The notes below the pieces were generated by a model. The model saw only the letters and a program-made list of their open reading frames with translations, did not search any database and was not told where the DNA came from. Below, piece by piece: positions 5,022-19,637 of a DNA stretch of 20,000 bases (its first letter is position 1; each line of letters opens with the position of its first letter). Source of the DNA: Craspedostauros australis (taxonomy: Eukaryota); assembly GCA_030167865.1 (NCBI GenBank), contig JALAGF010000383.1:110480-130479 (forward strand). Direction: 5' to 3'. The translations under genes and the position numbers were made by a program.

Positions 5022-5622
5022 CCGTCGGTCGGAGGTTGTGTGATTATGACTCAAAGGCGACGATGAGAGAGGATGCGGATGAATAGTACTGTGCAGCCAG
5101 GCAACTGCGCGTACCTCATGTTTCTCATCACGTTGCTGTTGCTGGCATCTCCCCGAAGATCCTTTGTGTTCTTTTTCGTTCTTGACGCTGGATCTCTCCG
5201 TCTCGAAAGATACCGACACAGAATCGCTGTTTTGTGGACAAGATGCACGCGGAGTGTGCGCAGACAGGGCAGTAACAGGAAAAGGAAAGCGTGGTGGCGG
5301 AAAGCAGCTCGTAGCCGATTGTCGCTGTCGGTCACACCAACGACGGGCGGAGGATCTTCGACAGTCGTGCGCAAAGTCTACTAACAGAGAGTGCCGCAGC
5401 TCGTACTACTACACATACGACGAACCATCGCCTGTGCAGTACCAAGAGTCTCTTTTCATCCGAAGATACCCACCCTAACCGTTGTTGGTGTTGCATCCGA
5501 AGCAACCGACACCAGCAGAAAATCTCACCCCACACCAACATCTTGATCATCAGGCAACATCAGTACTGTACTAGTGGCGTAGATGGTAGAGAAGAATTGG
5601 CGACTGCGCGTACGGATGAAGC

Positions 5623-6897: not shown

Positions 6898-7312
6898 ATG
6901 TTGCAGCGGATTGCAAGTAGTATGATGCACTCGTAGCATGTGCGTGCGCGCGACTTTGGCAAGAGCGTGGGCAACATGAGTGCCGCGTCAGTCTCTTCAA
7001 GCGCTGTTGCCCACGCGATGGTATATGTCGCAATTTGCAGCTTCCTCTGTAAGGCTCGCATTTACTCGCGGTCAATCCACACTTGCAGCCCTTGCTCCCG
7101 TTTCGTTCTGCGAGGCCAAGAGCGAGCGACCGCCTCAGCTTCTCCGCAGAGTGTTAGTGATTGTATGTACCACACGAGAATCATACACAGGCACCTATGC
7201 CGGCTACCTACGTACAGGAGCATCCGTACAGAATTACCCAGAGCCGGCAACACATCAGGAGGGAATGCGCATTTCGAGTCGTGCATACGAAGACCAAGAA
7301 AAGTATCAATGA

Positions 7313-7398
7313 TTTCGTAAAAGTTCGACTGCTGTGACTCTTGTGACTGCTCCTTCGGAAACTGAAAATCGACGACGAAAGAAGCGCCGCGAAGATCT
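7313..7398 (+). promoter_or_regulatory. Candidate cis-regulatory module upstream of RPN3, shared with PSMB2
   Basis: TTTCGTAAAAGTTCGA (7313-7328), GAAAATCGA (7364-7372) and CCGCGAAGATCT (7387-7398) have near-identical counterparts in the same order at 16392-16471. Confidence 0.45.
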
Positions 7399-7634: not shown

Positions 7635-9738
7635 ATGGTTGACAAGAAGGCAGAAGCGAAGAAGGAAGACAAGGGGGCTGCAGGCGCAGCCGACAACTCG
7701 CCATCGTCATCGGGAGACAGCAAGGAGGCATCGGCCGCCGCAAAGAAACTGCCTCCACTGATCGCCGCGTCCCGGCGTTTGGATGCGCAGCTCGGCGGTG
7801 GGTTGGCCGCGAAGGATAGAGCGCTGTACTCTTACATCAACCCAGTCAAGGTGCTGCGGCGATGGCTGGGCATGGCCTCTGGCGCATCCTCGAGCTGCGC
7901 CTTGGGTGATATCGCGAAGGCCGCTGAGAGCTTGCTGGACCCAGAAGGTCCCTGCAAGGCTGGCCGCAACTTGCTGCTCGGATTCGCAGCGCCGGAGAGC
8001 GACAAAGCCGAATCCATGGAGGTCGATGACGCAGCTCCTTCGAAGGATGGCGAAGCGGAGGCACCCGCTTTCCTGTCTCTGTCGTCGGCAAGAGAGATCG
8101 AGGGTTGGCTGATCAGCCTGGCAGTGCGCTTGCTCATCAAGGACAAGAAGTACAGCGAGGCCATGGAGCTGTCGCAGAAGGGAATCGCGATCACACACAA
8201 GCACATCCAGGCATCGTCAAGCCAGCTGACCGCCAAGAACGGATTCTCCGCGAACTCGCTGTTCCCAGGACTTGCCCGGCTGTACAGATACAGGTCGTTG
8301 GTGTCGGAACTGCTCAATGACCCCAGTCTTGCCGCCGATCTCCGACAGGACTTGGTCAAGGCTCACAACATGGCCTGTCTTCGTCGTGATGTCGACTCCC
8401 AGTCGACGTTGCTGAATCTCATGCTGAGGGACTACCTGTTGCATGACCAAGGTACGTGACATGGTGTTTATCACAACACGGAGATTTGCGTCGCGATGCC
8501 TTTCCCTCGCGTTGCAGCTAGGTCTCCATGCCTTCCATCTCGTGTGACATGAAACGATGCGATGTGTTGTGTTGTGACGATGTGGCGTGACATGACGGAA
8601 CGCAAGTGTTTCCTCACTCCGCAGAATACCATCGTTAGTGATAGTATTCGGTTGAGTGCGGGTCCATCGTATTGTTAGATCAGAGATGCAAGCCATCGCC
8701 ATGGATGCTCCGCTGCAGAATGCGCCGATGAAAGAGATCTGAACCACATTTATATGGCCGGCTACGAAGAAACGAACAAACCTCACGAAGGTGGCCTCAT
8801 GCACTCACTCGCTCACTCAATCTCGCCGCTCCTTCCACTTTCCCGACCGCTCGACCGATCGCCCTGCTTTAACCGCTACGTTTCATTCCATTCCATTAAA
8901 TTCCATTTCATACCCAGTCGAACAAGCGCACAAGCTCCTGACGAATTCGACCTTCCCCGACTCCGCGTCGAACAATCAGCTCTGCCGTTACCTGTACAAC
9001 AGCGGCCGAATCCACGCGCTGAGACTCGAGTACACCAAAGCATTCTCCAGCCTCTCCCAGTCGTTGCGGAAGGCGCCCAGCAACACAGGGTTGGGATTCC
9101 GCATCGAAGTGCAGCGCTTGCTGATTGTGGTGCAATTGCTGATGGGCGAGATCCCGGATCGGCATCTTTTCTTCACCGAAGGCATGAAAACAGAGCTGGC
9201 TCCGTACCTTCGTATCACGCAGGCTGTTCGCAAGGGAGACCTGAAGACGTTCACGGCTGTCGTGTCTGAAAATGCTCCTCGCCTTCAAAAGGACCGCACT
9301 TACACGCTCATCTCGCGTCTTGCTCATCAGGTCGTGAAGGCAGGATTGCGCAAGCTGCACATCAGCTATTCCCGAATGTCGTTGCAGGACGTTGCCGATC
9401 GTTTGGGACTTCCTTCTGCAACTTCGGCTGAATTTGTGGTGGCAAAGGCCGTTCGCGACGGTGTGCTGGATGCCACGATCCACCACGAGGAGGGGTACAT
9501 GCAGAGCCACGACCTCGTCGATGTCTACGCCACGCAGGAACCGGCAGAGGCATTCCACAGACGTATCGCGTACTGCTTGACAACGCACAACGACGCCGTC
9601 CGAGCCATGCGCTATCCGCCAGATGAGTACAAGCGTCAGCTGGAGGCCAGCCGCGGGAACCGTGGCAAGAGCAGCGACGACAAGACCGACGAGGAGAAGG
9701 CAAGAGAATTAGAGGATGAGATGGATGATGACTACTAA
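7635..9738 (+). CDS. RPN3: 26S proteasome regulatory (lid) subunit RPN3/PSMD3; exons 7635-8451 and 8918-9738, 545 aa
   Basis: Splicing joins ...LLNLMLRDYLLHDQ-V-EQAHKLL... in frame. The PCI domain and Rpn3 C-terminus are clear: SNNQLCRYLYNSGRIHALRLEY, VVQLLMGEIPDR, ISYSRMSLQDVA, AEFVVAKAVRDGVLDATI, DVYATQEPAEAFHRRIAYCLTTHNDAVRAMRYP. Confidence 0.96.
8452..8917 (+). other. Spliceosomal intron of RPN3 (466 bp, phase 1)
   Basis: Donor G|GTACGT, pyrimidine-rich 3' end and acceptor CCCAG|TC. Removal restores the conserved reading frame. Confidence 0.93.
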
Positions 9739-9973
9739 GCGCCGCGACCGGAGTGTTGAAAGATGGCGGGCAGACAGAAGGTGGTAGCCACTCGGCGCTT
9801 GCAGCGCTGCCAATACTCGCGCGGGTAGTATGGTATTAAGTTGACTTTGCGTCCCAACTGTTCACGCTCTTCTACTCGTACATACTGTGGAACTCCCCGC
9901 TGACCAGCCTCTAATCGATGATGGCATTCTCTATCTCCTTCGGGCATCACCGCCGTGAAGTTCAATAGTACTG

Positions 9974-11083
9974 TCAAGTTTGTTCTCGATGGTAAATCCA
10001 GACGGGCGCCCCCCTCCAGGCATTCTTTGTCCACGACATTTCCACATGCTCCATCTCCGGTTTTTGGAATCCCATCCGGTTCTCTGTGTTACGCATACGA
10101 GTCTCCAAAGGTCCATTCCGATACTGGTGGGCTGAATTTTCTGCGCATGGAATATTCTCAGCGTCACCAGCAAATTCACCACCGGGGTTGGGCACGCCTC
10201 GGAGCTGATTTGGGAATGGCCGAAGTGATGCGATGCACTTGAGGTTTGGACAATCACGCCAACCGTCCTCGCACAGTTTTTCCTCCAGCTGACGCAGAAC
10301 GTCAGACGGGAAGCACAGCGACGAAACGAAGAGATGTGTGGTTTGCGATAAATCTGCATCGACCAAATCGCCCTCCACAAATCCGATCGTCCTGTGCTTT
10401 GCATATTGGTGGCCTTCCAGGTTCGCGATGATGCTGTGAAATGAACGCAACTCCTCGCTGCGCCTCAGTCGACCCCATGCCTGCACCGCCTGCGCATGCC
10501 GGCTGGCAACGAGCTCGATACCTCGGCTATCCCTCAAATGCGGTATCTCCAAGTACGCCTGGACCACCAGCTTTCCAACGCCAGATCCCATGTCCATAAA
10601 GTTGACTTCGTCAGATGCCGACTGCGCATGAGATGAATAGAGTCCCATATGATGAAATAGCTGCCTGGCGCCGGTGGTCGTCACTTCACCGTACGTGAAT
10701 CTAGTTTGGTGATCTCGGAACGGATCGGAAAAAACTGATTCTGCAGAATAGGAAGACTCGTATTGGTCAGAGCGCGTTGCCAATCTGCTGTCGCATCCAG
10801 CGCCTGTGCCGCTCGCAGTGCCAGTACTACTTGCAGTTGTAGTGACAACGCCAGGAGCAGGGCCATCGATCCCATCGCCATACCCGGCATCGTCCACCCA
10901 GAATGGTTCGGCTCCATTTCCACGTTGCGGTTGGAAGATGAGATCGATGCAACGTCGGGAGCGGTACACGTCCCAGCTCGATGGGATCGGTTCCGCGCAG
11001 GGTAGATGGGAATCAATCACGTCGGGCGGCAGAAGGATGATCGATCCCACAACCTGCGACAACCAACCGGAGAAGCATAGCAT
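9974..11083 (-). CDS. DOT1-like class I SAM-dependent methyltransferase (H3K79 methyltransferase family)
   Basis: 369-aa ORF with TYGEV, motif I FMDMGSGVGKLVVQA, GIELVASRH, FVEGDL and THLFVSSLCF. These follow the DOT1 catalytic-domain order YGE / DLGSG.G / GIE / GDF / F.N..F. Confidence 0.75.
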   Translation of the reverse strand: MLCFSGWLSQVVGSIILLPPDVIDSHLPCAEPIPSSWDVYRSRRCIDLIFQPQRGNGAEPFWVDDAGYGDGIDGPAPGVVTTTASSTGTASGTGAGCDSRLATRSDQYESSYSAESVFSDPFRDHQTRFTYGEVTTTGARQLFHHMGLYSSHAQSASDEVNFMDMGSGVGKLVVQAYLEIPHLRDSRGIELVASRHAQAVQAWGRLRRSEELRSFHSIIANLEGHQYAKHRTIGFVEGDLVDADLSQTTHLFVSSLCFPSDVLRQLEEKLCEDGWRDCPNLKCIASLRPFPNQLRGVPNPGGEFAGDAENIPCAENSAHQYRNGPLETRMRNTENRMGFQKPEMEHVEMSWTKNAWRGAPVWIYHREQT

Positions 11084-11875
11084 GGGATTGTATCACCGTT
11101 GCTCTTCAGCTCTTCTGTTGCTCTGCTTTTCTCTCCTCTGCGAGTACTAGTGTGGACACTGTCTCTTCGTTCTTGCGTCGTTCTGCGTCACGTTGTGGGA
11201 TGGCCTCCTTAGTATGTGACATCTATGTATCCGATGTAAAGTATGGTATGATGCCATGGAAGTATAATAATATAGCACGACCTGGAGAGAAGGAAAGCTC
11301 GAACGATGCGGGCTCATCGGCAGAGCATGGTGTCATCATCGTATCTTCTGTGTGGGTGTCGGCACCAGATTGTCCAGCACCGAATGTGTCATCGTCGATG
11401 GTTTGATCGGACGAGTCATCCGCAACCCGAATATGCATCCGACAGACAGACTTCGCGCCAAAACGCCTCCGCGAACGTGTTGGGACTTCGCTGGCTCGAA
11501 TTCTGGCGATTGTCTCGCGAACCAAAACAGAAGCGTTTCACACAAAAACGCTGCGCCCACAAAACCACGCTCTTCCGAGAAAGCTTGTTGTCAAAGTTCA
11601 TGACAAAGCATCGCCAACGAGATGACAACCAACCAGATACGCAAACCACATCAAATCACATTTCTCCATTCTACTCTCCTGCACTCTCCAAAGTGGAGCC
11701 AACTGAACTCCATTCATCTCAATTCCACTCCGCAAAGACAATACCGAATACAACAACATCCCCAAGAGGCAACTTCCTGATCCAAATCACCGCCGTTCAG
11801 AGGATCACCCATACAGTTACCTGAGCGTACTATACACCCTGCTGCTGAATTCCAATTGAAATCGAGTCTGGGACA

Positions 11876-14800
11876 ATGAAGTTCTGCTACTGTGTGGTGC
11901 ACGGGAGAGAACTGGGGATCTTCTTCTCATGGGATGAGACCAAGAAGCATGTGATTGGCTTCTCGAACGCCTCGTACCAAGGATGCGAGACGCTCTCCGA
12001 AGCCAAGGCGTACATGCGGCTGTGCGGGATGGTCCCACGAAAGGAGGTCAAGGCGGATCAAACGCCTGCCGCGGACGAAGGCTTGTTGTCGTCAAAGGGT
12101 TGGACGACGCGCATCCTTTACGTTGATGCGGCACCCAGAAGCACCACGCGGGGGTCATCGTCGCCTTACTTTCAAGCCAAGCAGGACAACAAGCGAACGC
12201 ATGAAGAAATCATCTCCATTTGTTCCTCCGATAAGGAAGATCAACCCAGCACAACCGCCACCAAAAGTCGTCGAAAGACCAATGGCGTTGCAACACGAGT
12301 GCAACCTCGCCGCGGTGCCAAGGCAACGCCGTGCGATGAGTCAAGCCATCCCAAGAATGAAGGTTGCGGTGCCACTGGCACAGCCACTGCTCGCATCTCT
12401 GCTAGTAACAGAAAGAGCGAAAGTGATTCTCCAACCATCAACAATCGCAGCAGCAGCAGCAGCAGTCCATGTGGCAAGTCAAAGAACAACAACTTTGCGA
12501 AGAATGAGGCGGATCGCCACCCCAGCAACGAATATGTCGACAACGATCTTTACCTCGACGACTACGACAATGATTATCATCACGAGCACGACCATGAGCA
12601 TGACCATGGGCACCACGATGATCATGACGATGAGGACGAACGACACGATGATCATGAAGACTACTGTGGCTACGAACAGGATGTCTACGAACAGGCTGAA
12701 TACGAACGAGACTGCGACGAACGACATGCTGAGGAGCAGCATGCGCAAGAACAGTATGACTACGAACAGGATGCCTACGAACATGAGGAGTACGAACGAG
12801 AATGCGATGAACGACGTGCCGAAGAGCAGGATGCCTACGAACAGGATGATTACAGACGACGGCGCGAAGAAGAGTACGCACTCGATCCTGTCCAACAACT
12901 CGCCGTAGACGCCGCCTTGGAGGGCAAGAACATTTTCCTCACTGGCCTTGCCGGCACAGGAAAGTCATTGGTGACGAAAATCATCGTTCAGAATGCACAA
13001 AGCCAGAATCGTCAAGTCGCCGTGGCTGCTCCCACTGGAGTCGCAGCCGTCAACCTCGGCTTGGGTGCGCAGACCCTGCATTCCCTTGCTGGTGTCCGTG
13101 TGCCGCAACGAGCTCGTGATTTCGGTAAGTTGCAGATGATTGTCGTGTTGTGTCATGGTGGGGATGGGATGCTTGGACAAATACATAGGAGGCCATGTTA
13201 GTTTTCTTCTTCACTGTCCCCCCTCCCCTATCGGAGGTGCATGCCATCTCGCTTTTCTTCGGTTCTTCGTCCAACGCATGCATGCATGTATACAAGCGAG
13301 CAGGTCAAGCAGAAGACGATGGAGAAGACAAACGACCGACAGAACGGAACGAGAGACAACAGAGCACCCGTGGATGCGTATCATTTGACCTTCGTTGACG
13401 CAGCTACTGTGTTCTCGAGAAGCACGTTGCCACTCAACTCTATGCTCTCCTCCACACGCTGCCATGCTCTGCTGGCAATAAGATGTGGCTCGCCTCCCCT
13501 CTTGGTTCTCACCTTCCGACTGTCAATTCTCTTCGTTTTCTGCCGTGATTTTCCGTGCTGTTGCTCGCGCTCATGCTTGCTTTGTTACATTTTGATACAC
13601 CGTACCACACCAAACAATGCCATGCCATGCCATATCATACCATGACGCATTCCACTTTCTCACACCGTCTACCAGGCACGATGCATGGCTGGGAGAATTC
13701 AAAGAAATGGAGGCAGATGGAAGTCTTGGTGATCGATGAGATTGGTATGGTGAAGGCCGACTTTCTCGACTTTCTGGATGTGACGGTGCGAAACATTCGT
13801 CACAGACCGCATGCTCCATTTGGTGGCATTCAACTGATCTTCGTCGGTGACTTCGCTCAGCTCGGTCCGGTGCCTGGATCGCTTTCTCTGCGTCGTGATC
13901 ACGCTTACAAACCAGGGGAGGATGGCGCAGATTGCTTCCTTGAAGTGCAGGATTGCACAGCGTACGCATTCCAAAGCGCGTGCTGGCGAGAAGCAAACTT
14001 CCACCACATCCGCCTGAACAAAGTGTTCCGCCAAGCCGACATGGATTTTGTGGCGGCGCTGACTGATTTGCGCGAGTCGAGGTCCGGATCCGATCGCGTC
14101 AGCCGGATGATCAAGGATTGCGCCAAGCCGCTGGCGAGAAGGAAGGACTTGAAAATCCCGGAGGGCATCGAGCCGACCATACTGTACTGCACCAACGCCA
14201 AGGTCGACAGACAGAATTCGGATGCCCTTCGGTCACTGAATACCGAGAGACAAGTGTACAAGGCGGTGGATACCACCAGCGTGGACGACGAAGTCCGCCC
14301 AGGCTACGCGGATTCCATGAAGCGGACGCTCACGAAAGACAAGTTCTTCGAGCAGTGTCAGGCCTCCAAGCACTTGGAATTGAAGCTCGGTGCCCAGGTG
14401 ATGCTGCTGCAGAACTTCAGCCAACTGGGTCTCGTCAATGGCAGCCGTGGCGTCGTCGAATCCTTCGAGCCTTGTCCCGTGGCGGTGGATGTGAGTGGAG
14501 AAGAGAATTTGATCCGCCCCGACGATCACGAGAAGTTCGAAGGACGCATGTTCGAGAAGATCAAGATCGGGATGCAGCTCCGCTTCGATGACAAGGTGTG
14601 GACGGTGAAACGATTCAAGAAGTTCCCCCTCGTCAAATTTCTGAATGGACAGCAGCAGATCATGGTCCCTAGCAACTTCGAGCGGACCATGTACAGGAAG
14701 GGCGTGTGCCGCAGGACACAGATTCCGTTGCGGCTGGCGTGGGCGTTGACGGTTCACAAGTCGCAGGGTTCGACATTGGATTTGGTCGTGGCGGATCTAA

Positions 14801-15939
14801 AGGGCTGCTTCTCTCCTGGTCAAGCGTACGTGGCGCTGAGCCGTGCCAAGTCGAAAGAAGGACTGCAGATCCGCAACTTCAGCAAGACCACGGTCCTGAC
14901 AGACCGGCTGGTGGAAGGGTTCTATCAGGCCGTGGATGATGGCGGTATGGCGAAATTCCTCAAAGAACAAGCTGGCATCTGGTGGTTCCCTGTCCTGAAG
15001 CACGCGGACTGGCTCACCATGTTCCAACGTGCATCGAGCGCCGAAGGCAAGGCGAGCGCGAAACAGTTTTGCCACTGGCTCTCCAAATACAAGCCGAAGG
15101 CGAGCTACAAAGGTTGGTGTGGGTACAAACGCAGCTTCGTGTCGTATTCAGGCCCCTCCTCCAAGCCTGTCACTCCATCGCCCTTGAGGCAGAAGGCGTC
15201 CACAAGAACCACCCACGCAACGACGACCGCAGGAGATGACAGTGACGGTTCTGATGGCTGGAAGCAGCTGAAGCTGACCTTCGGCGCAGGTGCGGGCAGT
15301 GCGTGCAAGTATGGAGGCAGCGGTGGCTTCGTCAAGGCTTCGACGCTGTTGCAGCGCAACGCCACTCACGCCAGCGGTTCAAAGAAGGCGACGAAGTCTG
15401 TAAGCGGCCAATCCTTGAAGAGCAAGACAGTCGACACGCAGAAAAAGAGGACGTTGCCGTCGTACGCTGACATCATGAGCATCCCCGACGACCTCAGCAG
15501 TCTCGATGGGTGTGGTGATGGCTTCGGCAACGACAGCAGCAATCCGGCTCCCAAGCCAATCAAGGCACCAAGGCCAAGCAAGAAGGTGATGGAAAGCGTC
15601 AACGTGCTCACTCCGGACACAACCAATGCCAATGCCAGCGACCAGAGCGGGGAGGACGAAGCCGAGGATGAGTGCGACAATTCAGAATTGATTGGAGTCT
15701 TTGATGAGCTTGGCGAGCTCTATCGGTTGCAAGGCAATGCGCACGCCGCCAACACGTATCGGAAGGTGTGCTCAGCTCTCGAGACGCTCGATTACACCAT
15801 CACCTTGAAGAACGCGAAGGCGCTCGGAGGCAAGAGCAAGGTGCCAGGCATTGGCAAGACGACGGTGCAGAAGATCGTCGAGTTCCTTCGAACAGGCACG
15901 ATGGCGAAGCTCGCAGAGAAACGAGCGCTGGACTTGTAG
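11876..15939 (+). CDS. PIF1: PIF1-family 5'-3' DNA helicase with N-terminal RNase H1-type hybrid-binding domain and C-terminal Pol X 8-kDa HhH domain; exons 11876-13124 and 13676-15939, 1170 aa
   Basis: Exon 1 has Walker A NIFLTGLAGTGKS, APTGVAAVN and GAQTLHS. Exon 2 has LVIDEIGMV, PFGGIQLIFVGDFAQLGPV, LNKVFRQAD, LKLGAQVMLLQN...GLVNGSRGVV, RTQIPLRLAWALTVHKSQGSTLD and GQAYVALSRA. The splice RDFG|TMHGW joins the two ORFs in frame. Confidence 0.95.
12671..12853 (+). repeat. Coding tandem duplication (90-bp period) in the acidic/His-rich linker of PIF1
   Basis: TACGAACAGGATG at 12671 and 12761. It encodes YEQDVYEQAEYERDCDERHAEEQ / YEQDAYEHEEYERECDERRAEEQ / DAYEQDDY. Confidence 0.85.
13125..13675 (+). 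other. Spliceosomal intron of PIF1 (551 bp, phase 1)
   Basis: Donor G|GTAAGT and acceptor ACCAG|GC. It separates the helicase motif Ia/Ib region from Walker B, and removal restores the frame. Confidence 0.92.
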
Positions 15940-16391
15940 CGTCCAAAAGAAAAGGGAGGTGGCAGTGAACAACCATGGCAGAACGCTGGGAGTGTAGCAG
16001 AGTTGATGTCGACGACACAACATGGATCGTATCGTATTGTACGAATGTACGAAGAAGTATTATATAATATAATATATCAATAGTGTGGAATGTGGAGTAT
16101 TGTAATGCAGAATACAAAGTCAAAGTCTTGTAACAACATATTGCAAAATGCCACGTTGGTACAGTGTTAAGCCGAGCAGCCAACTAGGTTCCTCGTTGTA
16201 GCTCGTGCTTGTGTTTGGTTTGTGTGGGTTCGCATTCCAGTCTCATCGAGTTCTCTTCGAAAGGGGCTGCGTGGAAATCCATATTACTTTGATTGAACTT
16301 GTGAAAAATAGCCTAACTTCGAAGCAGTACTGTGTTGTTCGAATCAACTGACCCACCGACTTTTCCGATTCGATCGAATAAATCTTCGATT

Positions 16392-16471
16392 TTTCGTACA
16401 AGATCGATGCCGTTCTTTGTGGAGACACAGAAAATGGAGATCCGTGTTGCCTTTGGCGGCCGCGGAAATCT
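16392..16471 (+). promoter_or_regulatory. Candidate cis-regulatory module upstream of PSMB2, shared with RPN3
   Basis: TTTCGTACAAGATCGA (16392-16407), GAAAATGGA (16430-16438) and CCGCGGAAATCT (16460-16471), matching the motifs at 7313-7398. Confidence 0.45.
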
Positions 16472-16616
16472 CCGCAACGACACCTCCAACCACAACAAGA
16501 GCAACAACAAGAGCAACCACGGGAGTAGCAACAAGGGCGACGCAAACCGCTTCGAGAGACGAAAGACCACAACTGATCACAGAAAGGTGTTTTGAAGAAA
16601 GAGAGACAAGTGAAAG

Positions 16617-17563
16617 ATGGATACTGTTCTCGGAATCGTATACGATGGTGGCGGTGAGTGTTTGGGCATGCCCGAGTGTGTGCAGGTTGCGACGGATGTC
16701 CTTGATGCTGCTGCTTCTCTTGCCTGGGTACGACCTCTCTGTGCGTCTTGTCGGAAGGAGCAAGATACGAAATTTTGTGTTGGTGGGGATGGAAGTGGGC
16801 ACGATGGCGAATGGCACGCCAAGGGGTGGTGCGTTGGGGCAGCAACCACGCAGCCACCTTCTTGATGATGGCGCTCCAGACTGATGCAACAAACTGGTAC
16901 AGCATCAAAGTAACTCATCCGAATTGCCTGAACATATTTGCACCCTCTTTTGTTTGCGTGACGGCATCCGCGATTTCGTGCTGGCGACGAGCAGTCATTA
17001 TCGCCGCCGACCAATCCAATGGCAGATCCATTCTGACCTACCAGACGAACCTCGACAAGATCAAGCCGTTGACATCGCATTCCATGATGGGGGTATCGGG
17101 ACCGAACTGTGATTTGGTCAACTTCACTGAATACGTCGCAAAGAACATCAGCCTGTACGAGCTGTCGAATGATGGCACGAAGCTTTCGACCCACGCGCAG
17201 GCGAACTTTTGCCGGCTGGAGCTGGCGACCGCGCTCCGCAAGGGTCCGTACCAGGTGAACATCCTGCTTGCCGGGTACGACGAGAAAACCAAGTCCAGCA
17301 GCCTCTACTACCTGGACTACATGGGGACGTTGCACAAGGTTCCGCACGGATCCCAAGGCTATGCCACATACTTTTGCAGTTCGATTTTCGACAAGGAGTA
17401 CAGAGAGGGCATGACCGAGGAGGAGGCGGTGAAGGCGATCGGATACTGCATCCAGGAAATACAAACTCGCTTCATGATCTCGCAGCCAAATTTCATCATC
17501 AAGAAGGTTGACAAAGACGGTGTATCAGTCCTGTCCTTTGGGTCAGATCCAGCAGACTCGTAA
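16617..17563 (+). CDS. PSMB2: 20S proteasome subunit beta type-2 (beta4; PSMB2/PRE1); exons 16617-16653 and 16995-17563, 201 aa
   Basis: The spliced product is MDTVLGIVYDGG-V-IIAADQSNGRSILTYQTNLDKI...DLVNFTEYVAKNISLYEL...ANFCRLELATALRKGPYQVNILLAGYD...LYYLDYMGTLHKVPHGSQGY...CIQEIQTRF...KKVDKDG. This is typical of the non-catalytic beta4 subunit, with no propeptide or Thr1. Confidence 0.95.
16654..16994 (+). other. Spliceosomal intron of PSMB2 (341 bp, phase 1)
   Basis: Donor G|GTGAGT and acceptor AGCAG|TC. Removal yields the conserved N-terminus. Confidence 0.92.
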
Positions 17564-19561: not shown

Positions 19562-19637
19562 GTGTCAAATGCACAGATAACCACTATGCTACTATGTGTA
19601 CACATAGTAGCATAGTGGTTATCTGTGCATTTGACAC
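19562..19637. repeat. Perfect 76-bp palindrome (38-bp arms, no spacer) flanked by TTC direct repeats
   Basis: GTGTCAAATGCACAGATAACCACTATGCTACTATGTGT|ACACATAGTAGCATAGTGGTTATCTGTGCATTTGACAC, centred between 19599 and 19600. TTC occurs at 19559-19561 and 19638-19640. Confidence 0.97.

Follow-up and report, generated by a model that had tools for sequence, protein, structure and literature searches.

A 10-bp-periodic direct repeat before proteasome genes of the diatom Craspedostauros australis: a candidate regulon element resembling step-type heat-shock elements

Two proteasome genes, RPN3 and PSMB2, lie on a 20,000-nucleotide stretch of the Craspedostauros australis genome (contig JALAGF010000383.1, positions 110,480 to 130,479; this whole stretch is termed the window), and both are preceded by instances, incomplete at RPN3, of a repeated promoter element, here called element B. 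Element B consists of at least three same-strand nTTCn-like units, in which the first base is T or A, arranged at an exact 10-bp period in either orientation. Diatom proteasome genes would share this cis-regulatory element, mostly 200-350 bp before the ATG, and its reader is most likely a heat-shock factor (HSF); to this reading, which is drawn from sequence, we assign a probability of about 0.58.

Element B in proteasome promoters

The B triple is present in 22 of 30 proteasome promoters and in 18 of 152 control promoters (p = 2e-11). By subcomplex, it is found at all 14 genes of the 20S particle and at 8 of 16 genes of the 19S particle, and up to four or five units occur at UMP1, RPN5, RAD23 and PSMB2. 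Position is constrained as well: 24 of 28 proteasome B sites start between -350 and -200 from the ATG, compared with 10 of 23 control sites, while both strands are used (15 plus, 13 minus). A G before and a T after each unit are preferred. A model restricted to the sense strand was rejected, with a leave-one-out area under the curve (AUC) of 0.55 versus 0.88 for the both-strand model, the seed of which came from the full set. Element B is thus both enriched and positionally biased at proteasome subunit promoters, the properties by which a control element is recognized, and it is probably a functional element of a proteasome regulon.

The proteasome set comprises 30 canonical subunits identified by family searches of the own genome, namely 14 20S subunits, six RPT subunits, and RPN1, 2, 3, 5-9, 11 and 12. 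Twenty-nine of their ATGs were placed by hand and that of RPT1 by the gene model; gene labels without a Pfam match rest on reading of the translations. The 152 controls include CCT (8), eIF3 (7), CSN and similar genes (7), small GTPases (16) and others (114). Their starts were taken from a purpose-trained gene finder that recovers 27 of the 29 curated ATGs, a partly in-sample figure. Seven divergent neighbours sharing a proteasome promoter were excluded before counting, as were 11 models with wrong starts, subunit duplicates or CDC48, and nine divergent 20S-like genes were kept separate from the canonical set. Some control pairs have one common divergent promoter, which is counted twice.

The spacing bears on a structural explanation, in which B would be a 10-bp-periodic nucleosome or bending signal, or a core-promoter feature of strongly expressed genes. 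Ten base pairs is the helical and nucleosomal period. Other periods from 5 to 15 are found in 1-10 of the 30 promoters, period 5 being somewhat raised (10/30), and B positions are measured from the ATG rather than from transcription starts. However, the controls show no excess at period 10 (18/152 versus 8-26 at other periods), and B is low in CCT (2/8), eIF3 (1/7), GTPase (3/16) and ribosomal ubiquitin fusion (0/2) genes. The element is also kept upstream of PSMB3 in diatoms with a GC content of 31-50%, as described below. We regard the structural explanation as improbable.

Chance likeness, inflated by choosing the pattern after the fact, is scarcely credible. It would draw on the tuning of the patterns on the same data and on control starts that come from our own gene finder, but the permutation-corrected search, the split of the gene set, the genes tested blind and the further species all speak against it. 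Among 4,576 triple-repeat patterns B ranks first, and none of 2,000 permutations equals it (family-wise error rate). When the pattern was found on the 20S genes (14/14) and one half of the controls (9/76), it held on the 19S genes (8/16) versus the other half (9/76; p = 1.5e-3).

Reach among genes and across diatoms

Among 20 held-out genes, the B triple is present at all seven that are linked to the proteasome (UMP1, RPN10, RPN13a, RPN13b, DSK2, RAD23 and CDC48) and at none of the 13 other ubiquitin-family genes. The element therefore extends over the assembly chaperone UMP1, over DSK2, RAD23 and CDC48, and over RPN10 and RPN13, and is missing from UFD1 and UCH37. Its presence at chaperones is modest, with triples in 6 of 15 promoters (p = 0.01; no gene model was obtained at one small-HSP locus). 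The cytosolic HSP70 and HSP90 promoters carry B triples and have no two-unit inverted heat-shock element (HSE) within 700 bp.

RPN13 is duplicated (L286, L287), and the two promoters are related: they have diverged, and a similar stretch is kept around B. The genome also encodes further 20S-like genes that form a divergent second set (L005, L013, L018/L028, L020-L022, L025-L027, L029), many with signal-peptide-like N-termini, which we take to be probably a periplastid-compartment proteasome; the B triple occurs in one of the nine that were counted. In the ubiquitin family, one 1,366-aa open frame contains 12 diverged ubiquitin-like matches (G000:C6020:23644-26766).

Other species were approached through a single metagenome scan with PSMB3, which returned 62 loci, of which 45 with usable 5' ends were taken. 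Removal of nine duplicates and four loci with less than 280 bp upstream left 11 relatives at >=70% identity and 21 distant eukaryotes. The B triple lies upstream of PSMB3 in nine of the 11 relatives, as against 0.72 expected from dinucleotide shuffles, and in none of the 21 distant eukaryotes; L226 and L249 are the relatives without it. L228, a short locus that is the same as L229, also has the triple. Among other windows of these loci, 7 of 88 contain it.

The named PSMB3 homologues at 72-82% identity are diatoms and Parmales. In the PSMB3 tree the carriers group with Phaeodactylum (L224), Mayamaea/Entomoneis, Thalassiosirales and Odontella/Trieres; L222 falls somewhere among the pennates, and the tree placement covers the carriers other than L238. 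The carrying loci thus include raphid pennates and centrics. The own-genome PSMB3 groups with Fragilariopsis and Nitzschia and hence belongs to a pennate diatom, and the L224 protein is identical to PSMB3 of P. tricornutum. A matrix built from ten foreign B sites alone ranks the own proteasome promoters at an AUC of 0.77. By these comparisons at PSMB3, B is conserved across diatoms.

The RPN3 and PSMB2 promoters and companion element A

RPN3/PSMD3 occupies 7635..9738 of the window on the plus strand (predicted exons 7635-8451 and 8918-9738; Pfam PF25573, PF01399 and PF08375), and PSMB2, the 20S beta-4 subunit, occupies 16617..17563 on the plus strand (exons 16617-16653 and 16995-17563; PF00227). 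An earlier sequence-only reading had described three motifs in the same order before both genes and proposed them as a proteasome module. The motif pairs are found at the places and with the identities that it gave: motif 1 at 7313 and 16392 (two mismatches), motif 2 at 7364 and 16430 (one mismatch), and motif 3 at 7387 and 16460 (two mismatches), motif 1 starting at -322 and -225 from the ATGs at 7635 and 16617. A single 14/16 match is frequent, being seen in 156 of 2,500 control promoter pairs. The three-block chain (14/16, 8/9, 10/12) occurs in eight of 435 proteasome pairs, including RPN3-PSMB2. The resemblance of the two promoters exceeds chance because such chains are rare in control pairs (3/2,500).

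The module as a functional unit is nevertheless highly improbable. The chain counts speak for it, as do exact copies of motif 2 (3/28 other proteasome promoters versus 1/152 controls), a weak enrichment. But the module is missing from every other proteasome promoter, enrichment is lacking for motif 3 at up to two mismatches (3/28 others versus 16/152 controls), and at RPN3 motifs 2 (7364-7372) and 3 (7387-7398) overlap a minus-strand B site. Motif 1 at up to two mismatches is absent from the 28 remaining proteasome promoters, and a genome scan with its proposed consensus gave three matches versus two for the reversed control. The PSMB2 copies of motifs 2 and 3 (16430..16471, plus strand) have no independent support as a module.

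What survives of the proposal is that a proteasome-associated promoter element exists, exemplified by motif 1, which represents two units of the wider element B. The relaxed two-unit pattern of motif 1 is found in 17 of 30 proteasome and 12 of 152 control promoters, spacings one or two bases off are without enrichment, and the autocorrelation peaks sharply at 10 bp. Genome-wide the excess of the two-unit pattern is only twofold (138 versus 70 reversed). The likeness of motif 1 to a heat-shock element also stands in general form; the gap, however, is 7 bp between 3-bp units, giving the 10-bp period of the step type, and the repeat is direct, has at least three units and takes either orientation. 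In an enrichment search over proteasome promoters, of the kind that the same reading had suggested, 33,255 words and gapped words were tested, and the permutation-corrected signals were gapped words aligning on motif 1 and one 5-mer. The top motif of an expectation-maximization search was a different one, element A.

At RPN3, motif 1 (7313..7328, plus strand) is formed by two B units at 7314 and 7324; of two additional units, that at 7305 is shifted from this phase by one base and that at 7354 keeps it. Motif 1 is a real but incomplete instance of B. The second RPN3 site (7369..7395, minus strand) has exact units at 7391 and 7381 plus a third unit mismatched at one base. It is the best RPN3 site under the matrix from other diatoms and scores at the 76th percentile of controls. 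The two opposed two-unit sites flank a degenerate copy of element A (7336..7346, plus strand), which lies 299 bp before the ATG and is not among the features of the sequence-only reading. At PSMB2 the array is fuller (16363..16415, plus strand), with in-phase units at 16363, 16373, 16393, 16403 and 16413; the strict triple spans 16393-16415, and the motif 1 copy (16392-16407) is included. An element-A-like site (16367..16382, plus strand; matrix score 10.8) overlaps the upstream units.

The predicted first intron of PSMB2 is bridged by a contig of X1, a run that can only be guessed to be RNA. A deep contig starts at 16538, 3' of all PSMB2 motifs, which gives a weak hint; the run covers neither RPN3 exon 1 nor a defined start. 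An X1 contig also covers 7000-7292, past the stop of the upstream gene, stopping 21 bp short of motif 1. We also note that RPN3 and PSMB2 are 9 kb apart (7635-17563), and that elsewhere RPN8 and PSMB5 lie close to a CCT gene and to CSN1, respectively (C4599, C6658). A period-10 triple at 5159-5181, with a motif-3-like word adjoining at 5151, is located in the shared promoter of a short-chain dehydrogenase and a CBM9-like gene.

Element A is often found beside B, commonly 20-90 bp upstream of it. The exact pattern is present in 7 of 30 proteasome and 2 of 152 control promoters and the relaxed one in 16 of 30 and 15 of 152, both patterns being chosen post hoc. It also precedes PSMB3 in L224, L233 and L238. 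As a proteasome-specific signal, element A was rejected: five-fold de novo cross-validation gave an AUC of 0.64 against 0.58 for a housekeeping null, and copies lie before diverse genes throughout the genome. The 12-base pattern has 316 exact matches genome-wide, versus 20 for the reversed pattern and 105, many of them microsatellite, when the spacer is one base longer. Among 40 of the first 42 matches listed, 36 are outside predicted genes and 24 lie 190-470 bp before the predicted ATG of diverse genes; the first 40 listed include two small-HSP genes (L187, L201). We read element A as a promoter motif of wide occurrence and specific spacing, apparently undescribed, that probably provides basal promoter activity. 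Another site in the window (11402-11417) lies in the divergent promoter of DOT1 and PIF1. The PIF1-like helicase (11876-15939) carries an RNase H1 N-terminal domain at its N-terminus and a helix-hairpin-helix domain at its C-terminus. A perfect 38-bp inverted repeat without spacer is present at 19562-19637.

Candidate binder and known proteasome elements

In a step-type HSE, three nTTCn units of the same orientation follow one another with 5 bp between them, that is, at a 10-bp period (PMC4552642). Element B has the same unit and the same-strand 10-bp layout as the step-type HSE of yeast and mammals; it differs in that its first base is often A, in extending to four or five units and in being sited directly on proteasome subunit genes. 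Canonical HSEs (three alternating inverted units, 2-bp gaps) are absent from the 30 proteasome and 152 control promoters, and the gap type (two inverted units and a third after a 5-bp gap) occurs in 1/30 and 0/152. The genome contains 133 HSF-domain matches, a count of matches rather than genes.

These features suggest a mechanism in which the B units, on one face of the helix, would recruit an oligomeric factor. Among the many diatom HSFs, one that recognizes B as a step-type HSE is the likeliest candidate. Under proteotoxic load, this factor would switch proteasome genes together with those of cofactors and of some cytosolic chaperones. Direct wiring from HSF to the proteasome would then replace a dedicated factor of the Rpn4, NRF1 or NAC kind. 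If B is functional, its binder is likely to be an HSF. A broader version can be put forward tentatively, at somewhat less than even odds: a diatom HSF may control proteasome homeostasis by binding a relaxed direct repeat of the step type directly at the genes of the proteasome, the shuttle factors, CDC48 and cytosolic chaperones, an arrangement that would predate the pennate-centric split.

Alternatively, B could be a genuine proteasome-regulon element whose binder is a non-HSF, diatom-specific analogue of Rpn4, NRF1 or NAC53-78 that recognizes direct repeats. The frequent A at the start of units, the preferred flanking G and T, the lack of inverted HSE units and the weak chaperone enrichment are consistent with such a factor, and among plants and algae the proteasome elements differ by lineage (Langin et al. 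preprint). On the other hand, the unit and the 10-bp period agree with a step-type HSE, HSP70 and HSP90 have B triples, and HSFs are conserved nTTCn binders, oomycete HSFs included (PMC11267843). We consider a non-HSF binder unlikely, though well short of negligible.

Several results count against an HSF-read element common to proteasome genes. Within B itself, A is the first base in about 40% of the second and third units, and strict TTC triples occur in 1/30 proteasome versus 3/152 control promoters, enrichment requiring the T-or-A first base; B departs from the textbook step HSE because of these A starts and the unenriched strict triples. RPN3 and seven other 19S genes are without a strict B triple (8/30 promoters), discovery de novo on the 19S genes in a reverse split did not recover B, and the triple pattern was framed after inspection of PSMB2, PSMB7, RPN12, UMP1 and CDC48. 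The blind genes are accordingly limited to RPN10, RPN13, DSK2, RAD23, UFD1 and UCH37, of which four of six carry the triple; in a second batch, UFD1, a UFD1-like gene, UCH37 and UCHL3 are without it. It is likewise absent from polyubiquitin, HSP110 (431 bp upstream seen) and three of six small HSPs, and the HSP70 sites score at the median of the controls when the own-genome matrix is applied. The cross-species check covers one gene, PSMB3, and five carriers are Thalassiosirales (including L229). HSFs of Phytophthora infestans bind TTC units with variable spacing on protein-binding microarrays, mostly as inverted units, and the proteasome is unmentioned in the accessible text (PMC11267843); 8-mer arrays cannot reveal a 23-bp direct repeat. 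The top CUT&Tag motif of PtHSF2, the only diatom HSF profiled, is telomere-like (PMC11986044). Element B works like a step-type HSE and is not classed as one, because strict TTC enrichment and inverted or gap HSEs are absent, the chaperone enrichment is modest and the diatom HSF motif is telomere-like.

Co-regulation of proteasome genes has been characterized in yeast, animals and flowering plants only. No proteasome promoter element of diatoms or other stramenopiles was found in the literature searched, in which subscription papers are thinly covered and co-expression motif tables could hold one; the accessible parts of PMC10661051 and PMC4686930 contain no diatom element. Element B is apparently undescribed. 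If it is read by HSF, it would add a fourth, independent way of controlling the proteasome by feedback and would give the hugely expanded diatom HSF family its first native target element, the working HSE of these factors then being the direct and not the inverted repeat. Its occurrence upstream of a PSMB3 gene whose protein is identical to that of P. tricornutum makes the driving factor directly testable in a transformable model. B also offers a handle on the DNA targets of the expanded HSFs and could yield a stress-inducible promoter part.

The known systems PACE/Rpn4, ARE/NRF1 and PRCE/NAC are unrelated lineage solutions. Like B, the PRCE element of NAC53-NAC78 and the green-lineage elements are enriched, positionally biased and lineage-specific, and they differ from it in sequence. 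The 2026 preprint of Langin et al. surveys green plants and algae only, and its accessible text does not mention diatoms or HSF. A Chlamydomonas palindrome from that green-lineage survey resembles the end of motif 3, which at the stringency of the sequence-only reading is not enriched here. In mammals, the ARE bound by NRF1 shares no relation with B; element A often opens with the AP-1-like word of the NRF1 consensus (PMC6568242), this 5' part being present in about half of 40 sites, but it continues differently and precedes many unrelated genes. Neither PACE nor PRCE sequences are among the outputs of the word-enrichment and expectation-maximization searches, and no direct count of either was made. 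PACE of yeast is, like B, common to most promoters of proteasome subunits and cofactors. It is a compact hexamer bound by the C2H2 finger protein Rpn4, and Hsf1 comes in one level higher, by acting on RPN4 (PMC6568242). Element B, by contrast, is a direct repeat with gaps and is sited at the subunit genes themselves.
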